Assembly: GCA_965221125.1 (NCBI GenBank)
Contig: CBDCRW010000007.1
Location: 512,001-576,000 of the forward strand
Reading direction: 5' to 3'
DNA from: Alphaproteobacteria bacterium
GTDB lineage: Bacteria; Pseudomonadota; Alphaproteobacteria; UBA828
Length of the DNA stretch: 64,000 bases
Every line of letters starts with the position of its first letter. Positions within the stretch are counted from its first letter, which is position 1. The position numbers were made by a program, and so were the translations under genes. Positions 1 to 60,728 of this stretch are shown here, piece by piece. The notes beneath the pieces are model-generated. The model saw only the letters and a program-made list of their open reading frames with translations, did no database searches and was not told the origin of the DNA.

Positions 1-192
1 AGTACGCGATTTCTCGACACCCAACAAACTGCTGAAATTCGTATTCAACGGTCTGGAAAATCCAATCGTAATTCTCCAGAACCCCTCCTCTTCTGCGTCA
101 ATTTCTTCCAATGCGACGTTCATTATTTGCTCTTCCGCGAACAAGTCCTCCACGTATTTTCTTGCTACTTCGACAGCTTGCTTGACGTTCAT
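1..192 (-). CDS. Small conserved hypothetical protein (3' end outside window)
   Basis: Not in the ORF track. My translation from ATG at 192 is MNVKQAVEVARKYVEDLFAEEQIMNVALEEIDAEEEGFWRITIGFSRPLNT..., open to the window edge. GGAGGGG RBS upstream. Lower GC than its neighbours. Confidence 0.7.
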   Translation of the reverse strand, partial: MNVKQAVEVARKYVEDLFAEEQIMNVALEEIDAEEEGFWRITIGFSRPLNTNFSSLLGVEKSRT

Positions 193-212
193 CTTCCCCT
201 CCAGCTTTCGGC

Positions 213-1100
213 TCAGCCGCGGTTAGCGTCGAGGAAGCCGAGCAGGATCTCGAAATAGGCCTCCGGCTCCTCGAACATCGGCAGGTGGGACGAGTTGGGG
301 AACACCTTGATCTGCGCGTTGGGGAGCGCATCCGCGATCTTCATGGAGCACGCGGGCGTGAGCTCGTCGTGCTGGCCGCAGACCACCAGCGCCGGCTGGT
401 GGATGCGGTGCAGCTCGGGCAACCAGTTCTTGTCCTTGATGCTGCCGGTGTAGCAGAACTCGTTGGGCCCCTGGATCGCCTTGTAGGGCGCCATGTTCCA
501 GTCGCCGAGCGAGCGCATGACCGGCGCCGGCCACGCGTCGAGCCGGCAGACGTGGCGGTAGTTGAGGATGGTGATGGCGGCCTGGTAGGTGGGATGCTCC
601 AGGGTGCCCTCGGCCTCGTGGCGCTGCATCATCGCCACGGTCTCTGGGCCGAGCGCGTCCCGCAGCCGGTGCAGCTCGCTCACGAGGTGGGGGATGTCGC
701 CGGCGCCGTCGGCAAGCGTGATGGTCTTGAAGCTCTCAGGGTACGCGAGCGCCCATTCCTGCCCGAGCCATGTGCCCCAGGACTGGCCGAGGTAGTGCAC
801 CGGCCCGAGACCCAAAGCGGTGCGCACGGTCTCCGTCTCCTCGACGTAGCGCTCGATGGTCCAGAGCGCCTCGTCCTCGGGCCGGTCGGACTTGCCGGTG
901 CCGAGCTGGTCGAAGGAGACGACGCGATATCCCTTGTCCGCGAGCCAGGAGTGGCTGTCCCGCAGGTAGTCGCAGGGGAGCCCCGGCCCGCCGTTCACGC
1001 AGAACAGCACCTCGTCGCCGGCGCCGAAGCTGTAGGCGACGACGGTGTGGCCGTCCACGGCGACGTCGATGGTCTCGTCCGGCGCGCGATCGTCCATCAT
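213..1100 (-). CDS. Proline iminopeptidase-family alpha/beta hydrolase
   Basis: NGGPG oxyanion motif, GQSWG nucleophile elbow, G-x-x-DE acid and SSH base motifs. Start moved to MMDDRAP (1100), after a GGGAG RBS. Confidence 0.9.
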   Translation of the reverse strand: MMDDRAPDETIDVAVDGHTVVAYSFGAGDEVLFCVNGGPGLPCDYLRDSHSWLADKGYRVVSFDQLGTGKSDRPEDEALWTIERYVEETETVRTALGLGPVHYLGQSWGTWLGQEWALAYPESFKTITLADGAGDIPHLVSELHRLRDALGPETVAMMQRHEAEGTLEHPTYQAAITILNYRHVCRLDAWPAPVMRSLGDWNMAPYKAIQGPNEFCYTGSIKDKNWLPELHRIHQPALVVCGQHDELTPACSMKIADALPNAQIKVFPNSSHLPMFEEPEAYFEILLGFLDANRG

Positions 1101-1260: not shown

Positions 1261-1857
1261 ATGAGCGAAGCCAAGAGCAGCAAGAAGAAGGCCCCCAAGG
1301 CCAAGACCGAGACGGCGCCCAAGGCCGAGAGCAAGAGCGAGAGCGCTGCGCCCGAGGGTGCCGCGCCCAAGGCGGCGGCGAGCGCGGACAGCAAGCCGAG
1401 CACGGAGGCCGCGTCCTCCGACGCGAAATCGTCGGAGAGCGGCAAGGATGGCGCTAAGGAGAGCGGCAAGGACGCCGGCAAGTCCGCCCGCGAATCCGCC
1501 GGCGGCAAGTCCGACGTTCACTACGGCTACTTCTCCAGCGTGCGCACGCCCGAATACCGCAGCGGCTGGGACGCGATCTGGGGCGGCAAGAACGGCGATA
1601 ACGCCGTGGGCGGCGACAACGACGACGAGACGCCCCGGCGGCGCCGGGCGGCGGCGGCGCGCACGAGCCGGCCGGCGAAGGCGCGGAAGCGCCGCGACCC
1701 CGTCACCGTCACCCTCGACCTCGACGACCTGCCGCCGGCGCTGAGGCAAGGCCTGGTCGAGATCGCGAGCGCGCGGCTCAAGGAATCCCGCGTGAGCTAT
1801 GCGCGCCGCGACAAGGCCGGCGCCATCGACTGGCGCATCACCTGCCGCGCGGACTGA
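1261..1857 (+). CDS. Hypothetical protein with a low-complexity charged N-terminus
   Basis: 198-aa ORF with high-GC codon usage. Non-repetitive core YGYFSSVRTPEYRSGWDAIW. Confidence 0.7.
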   Translation: MSEAKSSKKKAPKAKTETAPKAESKSESAAPEGAAPKAAASADSKPSTEAASSDAKSSESGKDGAKESGKDAGKSARESAGGKSDVHYGYFSSVRTPEYRSGWDAIWGGKNGDNAVGGDNDDETPRRRRAAAARTSRPAKARKRRDPVTVTLDLDDLPPALRQGLVEIASARLKESRVSYARRDKAGAIDWRITCRAD

Positions 1858-11456: not shown

Positions 11457-11783
11457 GGCGCAACGGGCTCCAAGGTGTTCACCGACGAGTTCTGCGCGTA
11501 CAATGGGGTAGGTCAAGGCTTCGATCACGAAGCTGTCAACCACTCAGTTGGTGAGTAGGTCCCGGTCATGGTGGACACGAACGGTATCAAGTCTTTCTGG
11601 TCCATGCTCAAGCGGGCGCACAAGGGTACGTTTCACAAAATCGGCGCGAAACAGCTGCAACGGTATGTCAACGAGTTTGCCGGACGGCACAATGTGCGGG
11701 AGGCTGGCACCATCCGCCAGTTGGAGTCGGTGGTAATCTGTCTGGTCGGCAAGCGGTTGATGTATCGTGATCTGATCGCCTGA
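11457..11783 (+). pseudogene. IS1595-family transposase remnant (C-terminal third, internal stop)
   Basis: Frame reads GSKVFTDEFCAYNG..FDHEAVNHSVGE*VPVMVDTNGIKSFWSMLKR...KRLMYRDLIA, colinear with the intact transposase at 50643-51614. Confidence 0.9.
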
Positions 11784-19959: not shown

Positions 19960-19988
19960 TTGACGGCAGCCGACAGAAGTTCGATAGT
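19960..19988 (+). promoter_or_regulatory. Sigma70-like promoter for structured RNA copy 1
   Basis: TTGACG-N17-GATAGT. Predicted start (~19994) coincides with the 5' end of the RNA closing stem. Confidence 0.55.
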
Positions 19989-19993
19989 ATAGG

Positions 19994-20130
19994 TGCCAGT
20001 ATCTTTCGGGCATCCCGCTGAGTCGGGTCGCCCGCTGAATAGAACAGCCTGATTCCGGGTCACGGTAGCTCCTTGGCCCCAGGTGAATAGGCGGGGAGTT
20101 TCTCTTAAAATTTCCTGAGAGATACTGGCA
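19994..20130 (+). ncRNA. Unidentified structured RNA / leader, copy 1
   Basis: 17-bp closing stem (19994-20010 with 20114-20130, two G-U pairs), CCCG/CGGG hairpin, CCCGCU/GGCGGG stem, GAAUAGAACA/GAAUA internal loop, GG-UAGCU-CC apical loop. Same architecture at 52019-52144. Confidence 0.75.
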
Positions 20131-20187
20131 AGGCCCGACGCCAGGTCGGGCCAATGCCACTATACCGAGCGGGATGGAGGAACTAAA

Positions 20188-20700
20188 ATGCGAACCCCTA
20201 AAAAAGTCTCAGCGGCCGTCTTGTCAGCAGCGGCCCTCGGCCTTGCCGTGATGGCATGCCAGCCGCAAGGCATGCCTGCCGCGACCGACGCGACGGAAGC
20301 CGAAGTCGAGACCGCGCCCAGTGCTGAAGCCTCGGCTACCGCCGAATCTGCCGGAGTAATGACCGCAGCCGAGATCGCCGATCTATTCGCCGGAAACACC
20401 ATTATTGGTGTTCTGGACGCGTGGAAACTGCGCTGGGCCGAGTTCTTTTCCCCTGACGGAACCTCGAAGGCATTGCTGAGGTTCGAGGGCCAGGCGGATA
20501 TGCGGATTGTCGGGAAATACTACGCAAACGATCAGGACCAATTCTGTACTTTTTACCCGGAGCTGCCCGATCAGAAAGAGTTCTGCCATGGTGTGGTGCC
20601 GTTGGGTGATGGAACGTACCAGCAGGTCTATGCTGACGGCACAAGAGGCGGAATTTACATGCAAATTCTGGAAGGCGAGCAACTCGAAGCGCTCGAATAA
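20188..20700 (+). CDS. Hypothetical lipoprotein (possibly DUF995-like)
   Basis: Basic N-terminus, hydrophobic stretch and VMAC lipobox-like site, GGAGG RBS. Core MTAAEI..LF.GNT...FFSPDG...C......C. Lower GC. Confidence 0.75.
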   Translation: MRTPKKVSAAVLSAAALGLAVMACQPQGMPAATDATEAEVETAPSAEASATAESAGVMTAAEIADLFAGNTIIGVLDAWKLRWAEFFSPDGTSKALLRFEGQADMRIVGKYYANDQDQFCTFYPELPDQKEFCHGVVPLGDGTYQQVYADGTRGGIYMQILEGEQLEALE

Positions 20701-20756: not shown

Positions 20757-20790
20757 GGATTGGGCAGGCTCCAAGGAACCTGCCCAATCC
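20757..20790 (+). terminator. Strong hairpin downstream of the lipoprotein gene
   Basis: GGATTGGGCAGG ... CCTGCCCAATCC 12-bp stem, without a clear U-tract. Confidence 0.45.
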
Positions 20791-21227
20791 GACGGAGTCT
20801 AGGCCGGCCATGCGCTGGATTCGCGATCCGAGTTTTCGGACTGCTGAAACCGGCCGATGAGCTGCTACGCCCTGACCGGCGTCGGATGAGGCACGATCGA
20901 ACCCTTGCCGTTCAATGAGGCCGGAGCACGGGTCGAACGGCGAAGAGGACGTGTTGCCGACACCTGTGCTTCCTGACGGACCCGCCGGTCACGGTACGCG
21001 TTCAGCGTTGGCAGAATGTGCAACCGGCGTGACTGTGGGATTGCTGGGATAGCAAGCACGACCGGCGACACTTGGCACCTGCGGCACCCCCATGCTTCGG
21101 TTGTTTATTGGCGTCTGCCCAATGTTCGGGACGGACGGCACCGGGGTGCGCACGCCGGCACGGCGGCAGCTTCGGCGATTGGAGGCGACCCGTTCGATCT
21201 CGGGACCGTGCGCCAGGGGCAACTGGC

Positions 21228-50159: not shown

Positions 50160-50642
50160 CCGGCATCCCCGCCCGTTCTTAACCCTTTGCTTTTACGTTA
50201 TTTTCGTAGTTTTGGGTTCCTTCTGCCGCTGACCTTATCGCTCTCGCGTATATGACTTTGACGCGCCTCCGCCTCGCGGTGCCCTCGACTCCATCCATCC
50301 CCGCCGTGCCGGACGTGCCCGCGCTGCCCACGGTTCCCGAAATCTCCGCAGAGGCCGCTGAGCGCCCCGTCAGCGCCGCTGCCGATTCTCCCACCCCTCG
50401 CCCTTCAGCCGTCGAGCGCGCCTCTCCACCCGGTTTTCGTCGCGTCCGCGTCCGCGACTAGGCCCCGCGTCCCCATTCTGCCGTCCCCCTGACGGTCCGC
50501 AAATTTCTTTGCGGACCATCTGCAACTTTCCCCGTCCTGATCATTATATGCCTGGGTGCAGTCGGCTCTCCCTGCGCTCGCCCCTCCGCTCTCCCCGCGC
50601 GATTACCGCCAAACTTCTCAGCGGTGGCAGCGAATCCGGGGC

Positions 50643-51614
50643 ATGCCCCAAGCTGCACCCGGCAAGTTCTATCGTCAGGGCATCTCCTGGCCCGAACTGT
50701 TCGCCCGCTTCCCCGACGACGCGGCCGCCGAGGCGTGGTTCGAGGAGCAACGTTGGGGTACTCCTGGTCAGCCGTCCTACTGCCCGCTTTGTGGTGACAC
50801 GGAGCGCCTCCGCCCCACCCCCAACCGCCGCCCGCTCCCCTACTGGTGTGGCGCTTGTCGGTCGTACTTCTCCGTCCGCACCAACACCGTCATGCACCGT
50901 TCCAAGCTCCCGCTCCAGAAATGGGTCATCGCCATCTACCTCTGGGCCACCTCGCTCAAGGGCGTGTCCTCGATGAAGCTCCACCGCGACCTCGGCATTA
51001 CGCAGAAGTCCGCGTGGTTCCTCGCCCAGCGGCTGCGTGCCGCTTGGTCCGCCCCTGCCGACGCGCCGCCCCCGCCGCCCTTGTTCGCCGGTCCCGTGGA
51101 GGTTGACGAGACCTACCTCGGCGGCAAAGAGCGGAACAAACACGCCAAGAAGAAGTTGCGCGCCGGGCGGGGTGCCGTCGGCAAGACCCCCGTTGTTGGT
51201 GCGCTCGATCGCACCGCCAACCAGATCGCTCTCGCCGTGCTGCCCTCGACCGACCGTCCCACCCTGCACGGCTTTATCGAGCAGCACGTGCAACCGGGTG
51301 CCCAAGTGTATACCGACGAGGCCAGCGCCTATCAGCGCATGCCGTTCCCGCACGACGCTGTGAACCACTCGGTCGGCGAGTACGTCCGCGACCAAGCGCA
51401 CACCAACGGCATCGAGTCCTTCTGGGCGACCTTGAAGCGCGCCTACGCCGGCACCTACCACCACATCTCCCCCGAGCACCTCCACCGCTACGTCGGCGAG
51501 TTCGCCGCCCGCCACAACCTCCGCACCCAAGATACCGAGGCTATGATGGCCGAGGCGGTGGCGCAGATGATCGGCAAGCGCCTCACCTACAAAGAACTGA
51601 TCGGGAAGAACTGA
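50643..51614 (+). CDS. IS1595-family transposase
   Basis: Zinc ribbon CPLC...CGAC, FSVRT.T.M..S..PL.KW, KG.SS..L.R.L.I.QKSAW, VEVDETY, YTDE, HTNGIESFW..LKR, KRLTY.EL. Confidence 0.96.
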   Translation: MPQAAPGKFYRQGISWPELFARFPDDAAAEAWFEEQRWGTPGQPSYCPLCGDTERLRPTPNRRPLPYWCGACRSYFSVRTNTVMHRSKLPLQKWVIAIYLWATSLKGVSSMKLHRDLGITQKSAWFLAQRLRAAWSAPADAPPPPPLFAGPVEVDETYLGGKERNKHAKKKLRAGRGAVGKTPVVGALDRTANQIALAVLPSTDRPTLHGFIEQHVQPGAQVYTDEASAYQRMPFPHDAVNHSVGEYVRDQAHTNGIESFWATLKRAYAGTYHHISPEHLHRYVGEFAARHNLRTQDTEAMMAEAVAQMIGKRLTYKELIGKN

Positions 51615-51752: not shown

Positions 51753-51843
51753 TGGCGGAGGAGGTGGGATTCGAACCCACGGTACGGCACAGCCGTACAC
51801 CGGTTGCCTAGACCGGCGCCTTCGACCGCTCAGCCACTCCTCC
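51753..51843 (-). tRNA. tRNA with a serine-type body and atypical anticodon loop (AGG anticodon, C37)
   Basis: GGAGGAG/CUCCUCC acceptor stem, G73, encoded CCA, D-loop GG, CCGGU-CUAGGCA-ACCGG anticodon arm, 7-bp variable arm GUACGGC/GCCGUAC, GUGGG-UUCGAAU-CCCAC T arm. 91 nt. Confidence 0.93.
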
Positions 51844-51982: not shown

Positions 51983-52011
51983 TTGCGCCCGCATTGTGCC
52001 TCCGTTACGCT
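51983..52011 (+). promoter_or_regulatory. Sigma70-like promoter for structured RNA copy 2
   Basis: TTGCGC-N17-TACGCT. Predicted start (~52019) coincides with the first base of the closing stem. Confidence 0.55.
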
Positions 52012-52018
52012 CTCCCTC

Positions 52019-52144
52019 GTCAATGACACGCGGAGCCCGCACGTCGGGTCGCCCGCCGAATACAACAGCCGCACGACCCGGCACGGGGTAGCTCCCCGCG
52101 CTTGGCGAATAGGCGGGACTTCACGCTATCCGTGTGTCGTTGAC
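52019..52144 (+). ncRNA. Unidentified structured RNA / leader, copy 2
   Basis: 16-bp closing stem (52019-52034 with 52129-52144, two G-U pairs), CCCG/CGGG hairpin, CCCGCC/GGCGGG stem, GAAUACAACA/GAAUA internal loop, GG-UAGCU-CC apical loop. Confidence 0.75.
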
Positions 52145-52213
52145 ACGGCCCGGCACCCGCCGGGCCGCGAGCCGCCCTATATCGGTCGGTTCCAGCGGGC
52201 AGCGGAGGGCGAC

Positions 52214-52588
52214 ATGTGGAAAGCCATTACTCTCAGTCTAGTTCTGGCCTTGAGTTCGGCTGCGCCGACCTGGGCGCAGGATTCTGGCAACGAATTCGTC
52301 ATCACTGTGCCAACAGACTTGGATACGCGCTTGTTCTTTGTGGCGGAGACGCTATCTCCCCATAGGGTGCAAGTGGGGTCGCCGTACAATTATGGTTCGA
52401 TGTACGAAGGTGAGCGGCAACGGCTGGTTCAATTCGCTCGCTGGGGGTGTCAACTCTATGGTCGGGATCGTCTTGCTTATGTCGGAATACAAACCAATGA
52501 TCAACGTTGTGACGAAATGGGTGCGGCCGCCGCCGAGCGCGATCCTCATTGCTACCACATCCACACCTTCGTGTGCGTTGAGCGGTGA
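52214..52588 (+). CDS. Hypothetical secreted cysteine-containing protein (IS passenger)
   Basis: MWKAITLSLVLALSSAAPTWA-QD signal peptide, GGAGGG RBS, four Cys, lower GC, 124 aa. Confidence 0.75.
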   Translation: MWKAITLSLVLALSSAAPTWAQDSGNEFVITVPTDLDTRLFFVAETLSPHRVQVGSPYNYGSMYEGERQRLVQFARWGCQLYGRDRLAYVGIQTNDQRCDEMGAAAAERDPHCYHIHTFVCVER

Positions 52589-52771
52589 GTCGAGTCTCTC
52601 GGCTCGACCTGATGCGCGCCAGTGTTGATGGCGGCGCGTCTAGGAGTTGAACCTAAAACGCCCTGGGGGACGTTCGCTCGGATTGTCAATCCGGCCTCCG
52701 GACCGCCGGAGATGGCGCGCCGCCATCTCCGGGAACCCACAATGTAATTCGCAGATCGCTCTGCTTCGCGC

Positions 52772-60150: not shown

Positions 60151-60429
60151 ATGATAGAGTCGTTCAGGCATCGGGGCTTGAAGGCGCTGTATCACGGCAG
60201 GACGGCCCGGTGGGTGGCTCCAGAGCACGTTCAGCGGCTAAGGGACATTCTGGCGGCTCTCGACAGCAGCCGAGAGCCGGAGGGCATGGACCTGCCGGGA
60301 TTTCGACTGCATGAGCTGACGGGGCGATTGAAGGGCCACTACGCGGTCTCGGTGTCGCGAAACTGGCGTGTGACCTTTCGCTTCGAGGACGAATCGGCGG
60401 TCGATGTCGATTACGTCGACTATCACTGA
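60151..60429 (+). CDS. higB: HigB/RelE-family toxin
   Basis: MI.SFRH.GL, LPG.RLH.L.G, SV..NWR.TF.F, VDY.DYH. Confidence 0.93.
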   Translation: MIESFRHRGLKALYHGRTARWVAPEHVQRLRDILAALDSSREPEGMDLPGFRLHELTGRLKGHYAVSVSRNWRVTFRFEDESAVDVDYVDYH

Positions 60430-60440
60430 GGAGGCCGGTC

Positions 60441-60728
60441 ATGGCGATGCACAATCCTCCACATCCGGGAGGGATCGTGAAACGGCAATGCCTGGAACCG
60501 CTGGGCCTCACCGTGACGCGCGCCGCGCAGGGCCTGGGGGTCACGCGTCAGGCGCTGTCCGAGCTTGTGAACGAACGGACCGGGGTCTCGGTCGACATGG
60601 CGATACGGCTCTCGAAAGCGTTCGGCTCGACGCCGGAATCCTGGCTCGGCATGCAGATGGCCTACGATCTTTGGCAGGCGCGCGACCGCGCGGGTCAGAT
60701 CTCGGTCGAGCGCTTTGTCGCGGCCTGA
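60441..60728 (+). CDS. higA: HigA-family HTH antitoxin
   Basis: M.NPPHPG, LGV.R..LS...N, MA.RL...FG.TPE.WL..Q..YDL. Toxin-first gene order. Confidence 0.95.
   Translation: MAMHNPPHPGGIVKRQCLEPLGLTVTRAAQGLGVTRQALSELVNERTGVSVDMAIRLSKAFGSTPESWLGMQMAYDLWQARDRAGQISVERFVAA

Follow-up and report, generated by a model that had tools for sequence, protein, structure and literature searches.

The window, i.e. the whole stretch of 64,000 nucleotides of alphaproteobacterial DNA that was analysed, contains two small genes, each headed by a structured 5' leader of the same RNA family (Table 1). The family model R1 matches the window at 19990-20142 (copy 1) and 52011-52157 (copy 2) and nowhere else, and the two RNA copies align with each other. 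The region of copy 1, which had drawn attention, is one copy of a large, strongly conserved folded RNA, about 150-170 nt long, that starts the transcripts of many unrelated, mostly exported genes.

Table 1. Positions of leader elements, genes and flanking features in the window
Feature	Copy	Position	Strand	Remarks
Promoter-like site, TTGACG-17-GATAGT	1	19960-19988	+	9/12 consensus matches
V5', 5' arm of clamp helix	1	19994-20010	+	17 nt; pairs with 20114-20130; the two non-complementary positions are U.G
Pre-A segment, CAUCCCGCUGA	1	20011-20021	+	holds the 5' complement 20011-20019
A, 5' strand of helix P1, GUCGGGUCG	1	20022-20030	+	partner A' 20132-20139
Conserved core	1	20031-20095	+	covariation; R1 105.5 bits
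P2a	1	20031-20036 with 20090-20095	+	
Internal loop, GAAUAGAACA	1	20037-20046	+	opposite GAAUAG 20085-20090
P2b	1	20047-20049 with 20082-20084	+	
P3	1	20057-20059 with 20077-20079	+	
P4	1	20062-20065 with 20071-20074	+	loop UAGCU
V3', 3' arm of clamp helix	1	20114-20130	+	
A', GGCCCGAC	1	20132-20139	+	3' strand of P1
A'', GUCGGGCC	1	20145-20152	+	rival partner of A'; local hairpin excludes A:A'
3' complement, AGCGGGAUG	1	20168-20176	+	overlaps Shine-Dalgarno GGAGG 20176-20180
Cargo gene	1	20188-20700	+	170-aa predicted lipoprotein, beta-barrel domain, foreign base composition
Hairpin after cargo gene	1	20757-20790	+	16-nt arms, 94% complementary; 57 nt past stop codon; no U-run
Leader	2	52019-52166	+	R1 123.4 bits
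V5'	2	52019-52033	+	
Pre-A segment	2	52034-52042	+	
A	2	52043-52051	+	
Core	2	52052-52117	+	
V3'	2	52130-52144	+	
A'	2	52146-52154	+	
A''	2	52159-52166	+	
Cargo gene	2	52214-52588	+	124 aa, signal peptide

The genes behind the two leaders had been described in advance as small, exported, Cys-containing, lower in GC and not obviously related to each other, and the lengths, BLASTP results, GC3 values and N-terminal signals agree with this description. The two proteins give no BLASTP alignment with each other at E<=100, both carry an N-terminal hydrophobic signal, and GC3 amounts to 0.63 (copy 1) and 0.58 (copy 2) as compared with 0.93-0.96 in three neighbouring genes. The copy-1 protein has 10 homologues (52-95% identical), most of which possess the canonical lipobox IAGC, the corresponding motif in the window protein being VMAC. 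The lipobox Cys24 is invariant in 11/11 sequences, as expected of a bacterial lipoprotein, and two Cys residues besides it are invariant among the homologues. The copy-1 protein belongs to no Pfam family. Its predicted structure is beta-rich, with eight strands, and residues 55-170 mostly reach pLDDT above 90. The fold search proposed in the preliminary description gave nothing below E 0.16 for copy 2, and for copy 1 it gave weak matches, the best of them to lipocalin-like beta-barrel lipoproteins (Tp0435, PDB 4u3q; the ToxS periplasmic domain, 8u2f), with a best E of 4e-3, TM-scores of 0.39 (query length) and 0.64 (target length), and 8-18% identity among the top matches. The copy-2 protein has one homologue, which is 53% identical and has 4 Cys in common with it. 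In the whole family, 39 of 59 cargo proteins are without a Pfam family, the other 20 are distributed among about 17 families, and about two thirds look exported.

The transcript of copy 1 presumably starts a few bases before 19994. A -35-like box at -48 to -28 from the clamp helix is present in 44 of 80 distinct loci and in 10 of 80 in a control interval, and 38 of the matches are situated at -37 to -34. The preliminary description had named a promoter between the RNA and the gene as a refuting case; this is not the arrangement found, the -35-like box lying at a fixed distance upstream of the RNA. No canonical terminator was found after the copy-1 gene; the hairpin at 20757-20790 is possibly the transcript end. 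An IS1595 transposase gene is located at 50556-51614, and a tRNA gene lies between it and copy 2.

Spread and fold of the leader RNA

The family was sampled with a pattern scan, which collects copies keeping the 23 fixed bases of the search pattern. It returned at least 86 loci, 83 of which are matched by R1 at 75-135 bits, while the other three are chance pattern matches. The at least 83 further copies come from at least eight phyla, all in MAGs, and near-identical cores occur in Alphaproteobacteria, Acidobacteriota, Gemmatimonadota, Chloroflexota and other phyla. At the gathering score, Rfam matches in the whole window were confined to a tRNA and a tRNA-Sec-like gene, and the RNA copies stayed unmatched. 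Searches by blastn gave no match to plasmids for copies 1 and 2 and none to phages for copy 2, and no published description of the motif was found in the literature on sRNA-Xcc1, riboswitches, structured RNA motifs and sponge metagenomes. A general tie to tRNA genes is unsupported, since a tRNA lies within 1.2 kb in only 5 of the 83 listed loci.

The 5' end of the RNA is joined to a segment downstream of the core by the clamp helix V, which is 13-24 bp long and variable in sequence. It is found in 82/83 loci, with a mean energy of -29.9 kcal/mol compared with -11.8 kcal/mol for shuffled arms. The V pairs include 104 G.U as against 2 A.C mismatches, which indicates that the sense strand is the one that folds. 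When the V arms were considered as possible guides and searched against the window, those of copy 1 matched only themselves, and the copy-2 arm gave a chance number of matches. The core is closed by P1 (A:A'), which crosses V. Because the linkers are 5-7 nt in some copies, V and P1 together are estimated to be sterically tight, and either helix may exist only as an intermediate of folding.

The fold as a whole (80 sequences, 41 pairs) is paired in 96.5% of cells, and 31 of the 41 pairs show compensatory changes. The V counts among these derive from an alignment fitted to V; A:A' did not figure in the model behind that alignment. Compensatory cells number 662, in comparison with 160 in shuffles, none of 500 of which reached the observed value; when the partners are slid by 1-3 columns, no more than 47% of cells pair. 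In the A:A' helix, 96.6% of cells are paired, two pairs changing on both sides and five on one. The core helices are paired in 97.4% of cells and include 15 pairs with compensatory change, values reached by 0/500 shuffles. The length of the core varies between 72 and 94 nt by steps not divisible by three, which argues that it is not coding. The sequence CCCGCU in the pre-A segment is common among alphaproteobacterial copies.

A', the 3' strand of P1, can also pair just downstream, with A''. The A':A'' hairpin can be formed in 75/79 distinct loci, it is a part of the copy-1 minimum-energy fold, and its R position covaries (G-C in 50, A-U in 13, G.U in 8 and A.C in none). A' therefore has two mutually exclusive partners, A and A'', and both pairings covary. 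In 76/79 distinct loci no U-run follows the last hairpin; in the loci L018 and L063 the A':A'' hairpin is followed by a U-run and is terminator-like. A Shine-Dalgarno sequence and a start codon are situated 30-70 nt past A' on the same strand (58 distinct loci).

Reuse of the leader before unrelated genes

Leaders and cargo occur in varying combinations. In a set of 68 distinct ones, homologous cargo is found in only 10 of 2278 pairs; six pairs carry the same clamp-helix sequence before unrelated cargo, and in seven pairs homologous cargo stands behind different clamp sequences. Modules reaching from the promoter to the start codon are common to different genes, e.g. in L030/L067 and in L004/L025/L036. 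The idea of a portable cassette consisting of the RNA leader and a variable secreted protein thus holds as to the portability of the leader. Comparison of 51 tails after the cargo revealed only one 15-nt match, between two near-identical loci, and in the lack of a conserved 3' end the term cassette fits the promoter and leader only. As regards annotation, the two small genes of the window should be treated as acquired units with their own promoter and leader. Moreover, as the cargo is about two thirds exported, without assigned function, and belongs to hosts known only from metagenome bins, the leader may mark surface and secreted proteins that are co-regulated and shared by horizontal transfer.

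Putative mobile promoters (PMC3575422) are described as highly similar upstream regions before non-homologous genes, within and between genomes. The leader units likewise head non-homologous genes; they differ from mobile promoters in that what is reused consists chiefly of a large structured RNA conserved across phyla. The leader might accordingly be viewed as a constitutive module without any switching, in which a portable promoter and a structured leader stabilise the mRNA by a 5'-terminal helix and secure the expression of acquired genes in many hosts. The position of V at the inferred 5' end, the heterogeneous and compositionally foreign cargo, the reuse of promoter-to-start-codon units before different genes and the documented reuse of promoters before unrelated genes (PMC3575422) are consistent with this explanation. 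A stabiliser, however, needs neither a core of ~95 nt with many invariant unpaired bases nor a pair of exclusive, covarying partners for A', and a purely constitutive role is regarded as rather unlikely.

The unit could also be an element at the DNA level. An attC-like recombination site, or a MITE with the V arms as inverted repeats, would account for the long inverted repeats, and several V arms start with GCAA and end with TTGC. Like the leader units, integron gene cassettes are single small genes, often exported and of foreign composition, beside a structured imperfect inverted repeat, and the Xcc1 relatives discussed below occur in integron cassettes. However, in the leader family the repeat lies 5' of the gene, the copies are single and not in arrays, R''/R' core sites are lacking, an integrase was not found in the window, and a conserved 3' boundary is missing. 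The V arms differ between copies and so are not conserved terminal repeats, the excess of G.U over A.C pairs means selection on one strand, and the core helices covary as in RNA; selection is thus at the RNA level. The helix ends read GCAA..TTGC, unlike the attC consensus. In agreement with the earlier statement that no IS ends surround copy 1, a 2-kb scan detected no IS-like terminal repeats. Its five inverted pairs include two relevant ones, the clamp helix (19994-20010/20114-20130) and the hairpin at 20757-20790; no other inverted repeats bound copy 1, and with V arms that differ between copies the unit is classed neither as a MITE nor as an IS. A DNA-level element is therefore hardly credible.

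Complementarity beside the ribosome-binding site

The preliminary description proposed a translational switch based on pairing of the leader with sequence abutting the Shine-Dalgarno sequence. Direct reading confirmed the underlying matches. In copy 1, CATCCCGCT (20011-20019) is complementary to AGCGGGATG (20168-20176), which has one base in common with GGAGG, the ATG following at 20188. In copy 2, GCCCGC (52035-52040) is complementary to GCGGGC (52195-52200), ahead of GGAGGG (52204-52209) and the ATG at 52214. For an estimate of chance, the 31-nt stretch ending with the start codon was shuffled and compared with the 12 nt that precede helix A. Copy 1 gave a perfect complement of at least 9 nt in 9/20000 shuffles, and copy 2 one of at least 6 nt in 3116/20000. 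Chance is thus an unlikely source of the copy-1 match, but not of the copy-2 match.

As a conserved trait, the pairing did not stand up. For the pre-A segment paired with the 31 nt to the start codon, the duplex energy over 58 distinct loci is -9.7 kcal/mol, no better than in the controls (-10.0 with partners permuted across loci, -9.7 with the segment reversed, -9.4 with the segment shuffled). The longest perfect complement comprises 3 nt in 13 loci, 4 nt in 27, 5 nt in 14, 6 nt in two, 8 nt in one and 9 nt in one, i.e. no more than 5 nt in 54/58; the four longest belong to copy 1 (9 nt), L041 (8 nt), and L083 and copy 2 (6 nt each). In addition, when the leaders were folded at full length from the inferred 5' end, the minimum-energy structures of both copies did not use the anti-RBS pairing. 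The two window copies are paralogues and do not provide independent cases. The pairing beside the ribosome site is real in copy 1, but it is not common to the family. The geometry would be sensible, with the pre-A duplex forming an outer helix stacked below P1, and the copy-1 match together with those of L041, L083 and copy 2 speaks for it. Nevertheless, a conserved translational switch of this kind is considered quite improbable as the mechanism of the family. What remains of the original proposal is a sense-strand RNA leader before unrelated small exported genes.

Candidate modes of action and related elements

The best guess is a cis-regulatory switch. It is about an even call that the family consists of promoter-proximal structured 5' leaders which act in cis by toggling between a P1-closed state and the A':A'' hairpin, with an output wired separately at each locus. 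Each leader would thereby control its own gene. With P1 closed, the pre-A segment of the window copies would come to lie next to its SD-adjacent complement, and the ribosome site would be masked. In L018 and L063, the A':A'' hairpin with its U-run would act as a terminator. The logic predicted for the two arrangements is opposite, as closed P1 would mean OFF (masking) in the window copies and ON (antitermination) in L018 and L063. A ligand or a protein could be the trigger, as could temperature or folding kinetics. In a thermodynamic model with A' blocked, the SD became more open in 14 loci, more closed in 15 and remained unchanged in 29 (58 loci), without a consistent direction.

The family resembles riboswitch-type leaders in the following: it has a conserved core, covarying helices, invariant loop bases, a 5' UTR position, an alternative partner for the 3' strand of P1, and varied downstream wiring with two terminator-like cases. 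It differs from riboswitches in the lack of coherent regulated functions, of a consistent effect on the SD and of a known ligand; the cargo has no common function, unlike the regulon of a metabolite riboswitch. A clamp helix of 13-24 bp is unusual for riboswitch-type leaders. A large RNA with a crossing helix and many invariant loop bases across phyla is the kind of motif that yields new riboswitch or ribozyme classes. It is tentatively suggested, as an idea with well below even chances, that the leader represents a new class of signal-responsive RNA (a riboswitch for a ligand yet to be named, or a ribozyme) built on a permuted three-way junction, with the 5' end of the RNA supplying one strand of the third helix, and that horizontal transfer has carried it into at least eight phyla of uncultured bacteria, where it gates a shared pool of exported accessory proteins. 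A self-cleaving ribozyme or another catalytic RNA in the 5' UTR would suit the pseudoknotted fold, the many invariant unpaired bases, the several copies per genome and the unrelated genes across phyla, all traits typical of small ribozyme classes. However, no ribozyme family of Rfam 15 was matched, and a catalytic RNA is thought very improbable.

The closest known family is sRNA-Xcc1 of Rfam (RF02221), matched only below threshold. Its gathering score of 53 bits is not reached, copy 2 scoring 33.7 bits and L079 27.6 bits; copy 1 gave no match at E<=10, and L079 was the only match among 20 further loci. The layouts agree in an outer helix of GUCGGGUCG with CGGCCCGGC around an inner helix, in an internal loop AAUACAA opposite GAAU, and in ACC(C) after the 3' strand, and both shared helices covary in the leader family. 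The local third hairpin (P3) of sRNA-Xcc1 is replaced in the leader family by V, in which V3' pairs with the 5' end (82/83 loci). The window RNA is, moreover, roughly double the length, contains a P3/P4 domain with a UAGCU loop that sRNA-Xcc1 does not have, and lacks a terminator U-run, whereas sRNA-Xcc1 is a discrete RNA of ~88 nt with a terminal U-run of the sort absent from 76/79 distinct leader loci.

According to PMC2996969, sRNA-Xcc1 was detected as a discrete 88-nt species by Northern blot and end mapping. This observation, together with the Xcc1 layout of P1, P2 and internal loop in the window RNA, would fit a separate small RNA acting in trans, the annotation given to sRNA-Xcc1, with the genes simply happening to follow it. 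Such a role appears unlikely, as the U-run is absent after the RNA in nearly all loci, the SD and start codon follow on the same strand at a short, tightly clustered distance, and the module similarity reaches the start codon. The comparison also suggests that sRNA-Xcc1 itself may be one of a broader set of leaders that act in cis on mobile genes. L073 contains, as a second copy, a short one in which a local hairpin takes the place of V; this corresponds to the Xcc1 layout and is the only such case seen among the listed loci; against plasmids, blastn of this short copy gave only chance matches of 25-28 nt. Xcc1-family copies, too, precede small variable genes of mobile DNA: symE in a Xanthomonas integron cassette and, in APSE phages, an ORF6N gene. 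A Xylella island has five copies at intervals of about 385 bp.

Distribution of the leader RNA and its relation to sRNA-Xcc1

The structured leader RNA that precedes a small gene (the cargo) at two places in the window matched no Rfam family at the curated thresholds in either copy. At relaxed thresholds copy 1 gave no match and copy 2 matched sRNA-Xcc1 (RF02221) with 33.7 bits vs a gathering score of 53. Species-representative genomes were scanned with a pattern of bases common to both copies (AATANAACA, gap, GGTAGCTCC, gap, GAATAG), which returned at least 86 stretches; the 23 pattern bases are fixed by construction and are uninformative on conservation. A covariance model derived from the hits scored 83 of the 86 listed stretches at 75-135 bits and found exactly two copies in the window, while excluding three scanned loci (L001, L019, L038) as chance pattern matches.

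According to a taxonomy look-up, the 83 loci among the matches listed belong to Alphaproteobacteria (41), Acidobacteriota (13), Gemmatimonadota (11), Gammaproteobacteria (6), Chloroflexota (4), Latescibacterota (3), Binatota, Nitrospirales, Syntrophobacterales, unassigned 'Proteobacteria' and an unclassified 'bacterium' (1 each). All come from metagenome-assembled genomes; several are on chromosomes of megabase size, and the spread across phyla is thus not merely a binning artefact. The blastn search of plasmid and phage collections gave no match, and no published description of the motif was found in the openly accessible literature or among the motifs listed up to Rfam 15. The larger result is a pseudoknotted leader RNA with strong covariation and a wide distribution, akin to sRNA-Xcc1 and lying outside that family.

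sRNA-Xcc1 is a mapped 88-nt RNA (PMC2996969). Copies of its family precede symE in an integron cassette of Xanthomonas (bioRxiv 10.1101/2025.06.18.660453) and an ORF6N gene of APSE phages (10.1101/2020.03.17.996009), and a Xylella island carries five of them at a spacing of about 385 bp (PMC12189769). Such contexts echo the arrangement in the window, a leader followed by a variable gene. Promoter reuse ahead of unrelated genes has been described (PMC3575422).

Features of the window and, where named, of two loci returned by the pattern scan (L004, L073)
Feature	Position	Strand	Characteristics
IS1595-family fragment	11568-11780	+	71 aa; within low-GC patch at 11-13 kb
Copy 1, promoter-like site	19960-19988		TTGACG-17-GATAGT
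Copy 1, leader	19990-20142		105.5 bits (covariance model)
Copy 1, pre-A complement	20011-20019		CATCCCGCT
Copy 1, pre-SD complement	20168-20176		AGCGGGATG; shares one base with GGAGG
Copy 1, Shine-Dalgarno (SD)	20176-20180		GGAGG
Copy 1, gene	20188-20700		ATG at 20188; 170 aa
Hairpin after copy-1 gene	20757-20790		21-nt arm shared with the second site below, 81% complementary to it
Second occurrence of the arm	21103-21123		323 nt further
IS1595-family transposase	50556-51614	+	DDE_Tnp_IS1595, E 1e-43; upstream of odd tRNA
Odd tRNA gene	51753-51843	-	91 nt; long variable arm, Ser/Leu-type body, discriminator G; about 175 nt upstream of copy 2, divergent
Copy 2, leader	52011-52157		123.4 bits (covariance model)
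Copy 2, pre-A complement	52035-52040		GCCCGC
Copy 2, pre-SD complement	52195-52200		GCGGGC
Copy 2, SD	52204-52209		GGAGGG
Copy 2, gene	52214-52588		ATG at 52214; 124 aa
tRNA-Sec-like gene	52632-52722	-	Rfam tRNA-Sec, 52.9 bits (gathering score 47); 44 nt 3' of copy-2 gene
HigB-like toxin gene with HTH antitoxin gene	60151-60725	+
L073, second leader copy	108-222	-	115 nt, 35.5 bits
L004, SAM-II (SAM_alpha) riboswitch match	1413-1487	+	30.7 bits, below gathering score 36; strand opposite to leader, upstream of it

Architecture and covariation

Of 80 distinct upstream regions among the matches listed, 44 have a -35-like box (TTG[AC][ACT]) at -48..-28 relative to the first helix, with 38 matches at -37..-34; a control window has one in 10 of 80. 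The site of copy 2 is weaker (TTGCGC-17-TACGCT), was found by eye and was missed by the scan. The RNA opens with the 5' arm of a clamp helix, V (13-24 nt, no conserved sequence), whose partner V3' lies 3' of the core. Between V5' and segment A (GUCGGGUCG) stands a short pre-A segment, often CCCGCU. The core runs through P2a, an internal loop (GAAUASAACA opposite GAAUAG), P2b, P3 and P4 with loop UAGCU; among the matches listed it spans 72-94 nt, with length differences that do not keep to multiples of three, so the region is non-coding. A linker, V3', GCAAC, A' (GGCCCGRC), ACC, A'' (GYCGGGCY) and the SD with start codon follow. A' pairs with A as helix P1, or with A'' as a local hairpin. V and A:A' cross; relative to the Xcc1 model, V replaces the local third hairpin, with its 5' strand shifted to the RNA's 5' end, and the topology would be that of a permuted three-way junction. 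V and P1 may coexist or alternate; by our estimate, both together would be sterically tight in some copies, where the linker is only 5-7 nt.

The V helix is present in 82 of the 83 listed loci (L062 lacks the 5' arm), and its mean duplex energy among the matches listed is -29.9 kcal/mol vs -11.8 kcal/mol for shuffled arms. The 77 distinct helices listed hold 104 G.U pairs vs 2 A.C/C.A single mismatches, which indicates selection on the sense strand and a fold made by RNA. In a MAFFT alignment of 78 sequences (the 79 distinct listed ones without L062; L026 and L053 had been dropped earlier), 97.4% of the cells of the core and A:A' were paired, slid controls reaching at most 56%. Compensatory change occurred in 15 pairs and 102 cells, vs 20.7 cells in shuffles (0/500). 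When 80 sequences were aligned with a model that contained V and omitted A:A', 96.5% of the cells over 41 pairs were paired; 31 of these pairs had compensatory change, and compensatory cells numbered 662 vs 160 in shuffles (0/500). All 17 pairs of V varied on both sides, the alignment being fitted to V; A:A', which was not fitted, had 96.6% of its cells paired; both sides vary in 2 of its pairs and a single side in 5.

The rival A':A'' hairpin can form in 75 of the 79 distinct loci listed, and its R position, among the distinct loci listed, is G-C in 50, A-U in 13, G.U in 8 and A.C in none. A' thus has two mutually exclusive covarying partners, A and A'', which is the main argument for a switch. 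A cis-acting switch is our best guess for the leader RNA, with about an even chance of being right. A U-run follows the hairpin in L018 and L063, giving it the look of an intrinsic terminator; L064 is ambiguous, and the other 76 of the 79 distinct loci listed have no U-run.

Two loci carry additional copies or parts. L004 shows a tandem duplication of about 42 nt spanning V3', A' and A'', which provides two alternative 3' ends for both helices. In L073, a second, short copy is found beside tRNA-Asn, some 930 nt downstream of the main one; it has a local hairpin instead of V and no P3/P4, which is the sRNA-Xcc1 layout, and the Rfam Xcc1 model did not report it at E<=1.

Complementarity to the ribosome-binding site

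The preliminary description had proposed a translational switch in which pre-A pairs next to the SD. Both complementarities exist as described, and its caution that GC-rich matches can arise by chance holds for one copy. When the 31 nt that end with the start codon were shuffled 20000 times per copy, a complement at least as long as the observed 9 nt of copy 1 appeared in 9 trials, and one at least as long as the 6 nt of copy 2 in 3116. The pairing in copy 1 is thus real and improbable by chance, and is plausible as a local output wiring.

It is not a conserved mechanism of the leader family. Across 58 distinct loci among the matches listed, the pre-A:pre-SD duplex energy did not go beyond the controls: the observed energy was -9.7 kcal/mol, and the controls gave -10.0 (partners exchanged between loci), -9.7 (reversed segment) and -9.4 (shuffled segment). 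With A' blocked in a thermodynamic model of 58 loci, SD accessibility showed no consistent shift (14 more open, 15 more closed, 29 unchanged). The full-length folds predicted for both window leaders form V and the A':A'' hairpin, and the anti-RBS pairing is absent from them. The overall reading of the preliminary description is partly right: a portable leader before variable, exported cargo is supported, a conserved anti-RBS switch is not.

Cargo genes and their surroundings

An SD and start codon follow A' by 30-70 nt in 58 distinct loci among the matches listed, and 66 distinct ORFs start within 20-120 nt. Pfam was run on 59 proteins, namely the two of the window and 57 of these 66; left out were seven with start calls judged doubtful on inspection by eye (L004, L007, L034, L042, L062, L069, L079) and two near-duplicates (L071, L081). 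Among the matches listed, 39 of the 59 had no Pfam family, and the other 20 fell into about 17: T5orf172, TylF, another methyltransferase, dienelactone hydrolase, DUF932, CsgG (2 proteins), GT25 (3 proteins), Big_9 and LRR (2 proteins), weak HTH and Ivy matches, DNA methylase, DUF805, superinfection immunity, GH113, SNase and a TbpB-like lipoprotein. A crude rule based on hydrophobicity and lipobox, applied without a genome-wide control, assigns a lipobox to 21 of the 68 listed cargo proteins and a signal-peptide-like or membrane-anchor-like N-terminus to 25 more, leaving 22 with neither.

Of 2278 cargo pairs among the matches listed, no more than 10 are homologous; unrelated cargo follows a shared V in six pairs, and homologous cargo follows different V in seven. 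Leader and cargo are thus reshuffled relative to each other. The RNA is a portable leader that has a promoter of its own upstream. In five loci (L004, L025, L030, L036, L067) similarity begins at the promoter and ends at the start codon, and no conserved element was found 3' of the cargo genes among the matches listed. These five, of which L025 and L030 lie 13 kb apart on one contig, have a near-identical promoter region and SD context and three very different V helices, so V either evolves far more quickly than the sequence on either side of it or is exchanged as a unit.

As described earlier, the two window cargo genes are lower in GC than their surroundings and not related to each other: GC3 is 0.63 (copy 1) and 0.58 (copy 2) vs 0.93-0.96 in three neighbouring genes, and the proteins show no relationship. 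Both genes are compositionally foreign, and the absence of IS-like ends around copy 1 was confirmed. The copy-1 lipoprotein has 10 homologues (52-95% identity, all unnamed), in which three Cys, that of the lipobox and two others, are invariant, and a predicted eight-stranded domain (residues 55-170, mostly pLDDT above 90). The copy-2 protein is a near-orphan with one homologue (53% identity) and a model of mean pLDDT 74. The fold searches suggested for both were productive in part: copy 1 gave weak, lipocalin-like matches (Tp0435, with E 4e-3 and a TM-score of 0.64 by target length, followed by ToxS and Bla g 4), and copy 2 nothing below E 0.16.

Two unusual tRNA genes flank copy 2 and its gene. 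The upstream one is assigned anticodon AGG ('tRNA-Pro') by ARAGORN; a proline anticodon on a class II body is unusual, and the gene could be a pseudogene or encode a mistranslating tRNA. The downstream one, not called by ARAGORN, has 9-bp acceptor, 6-bp D and 4-bp T stems and a long variable arm; its anticodon loop is UUGACAA in the Rfam alignment, which makes the anticodon GAC and not UCA. We take it to be reminiscent of the 'allo-tRNAs' with Sec-like folds.
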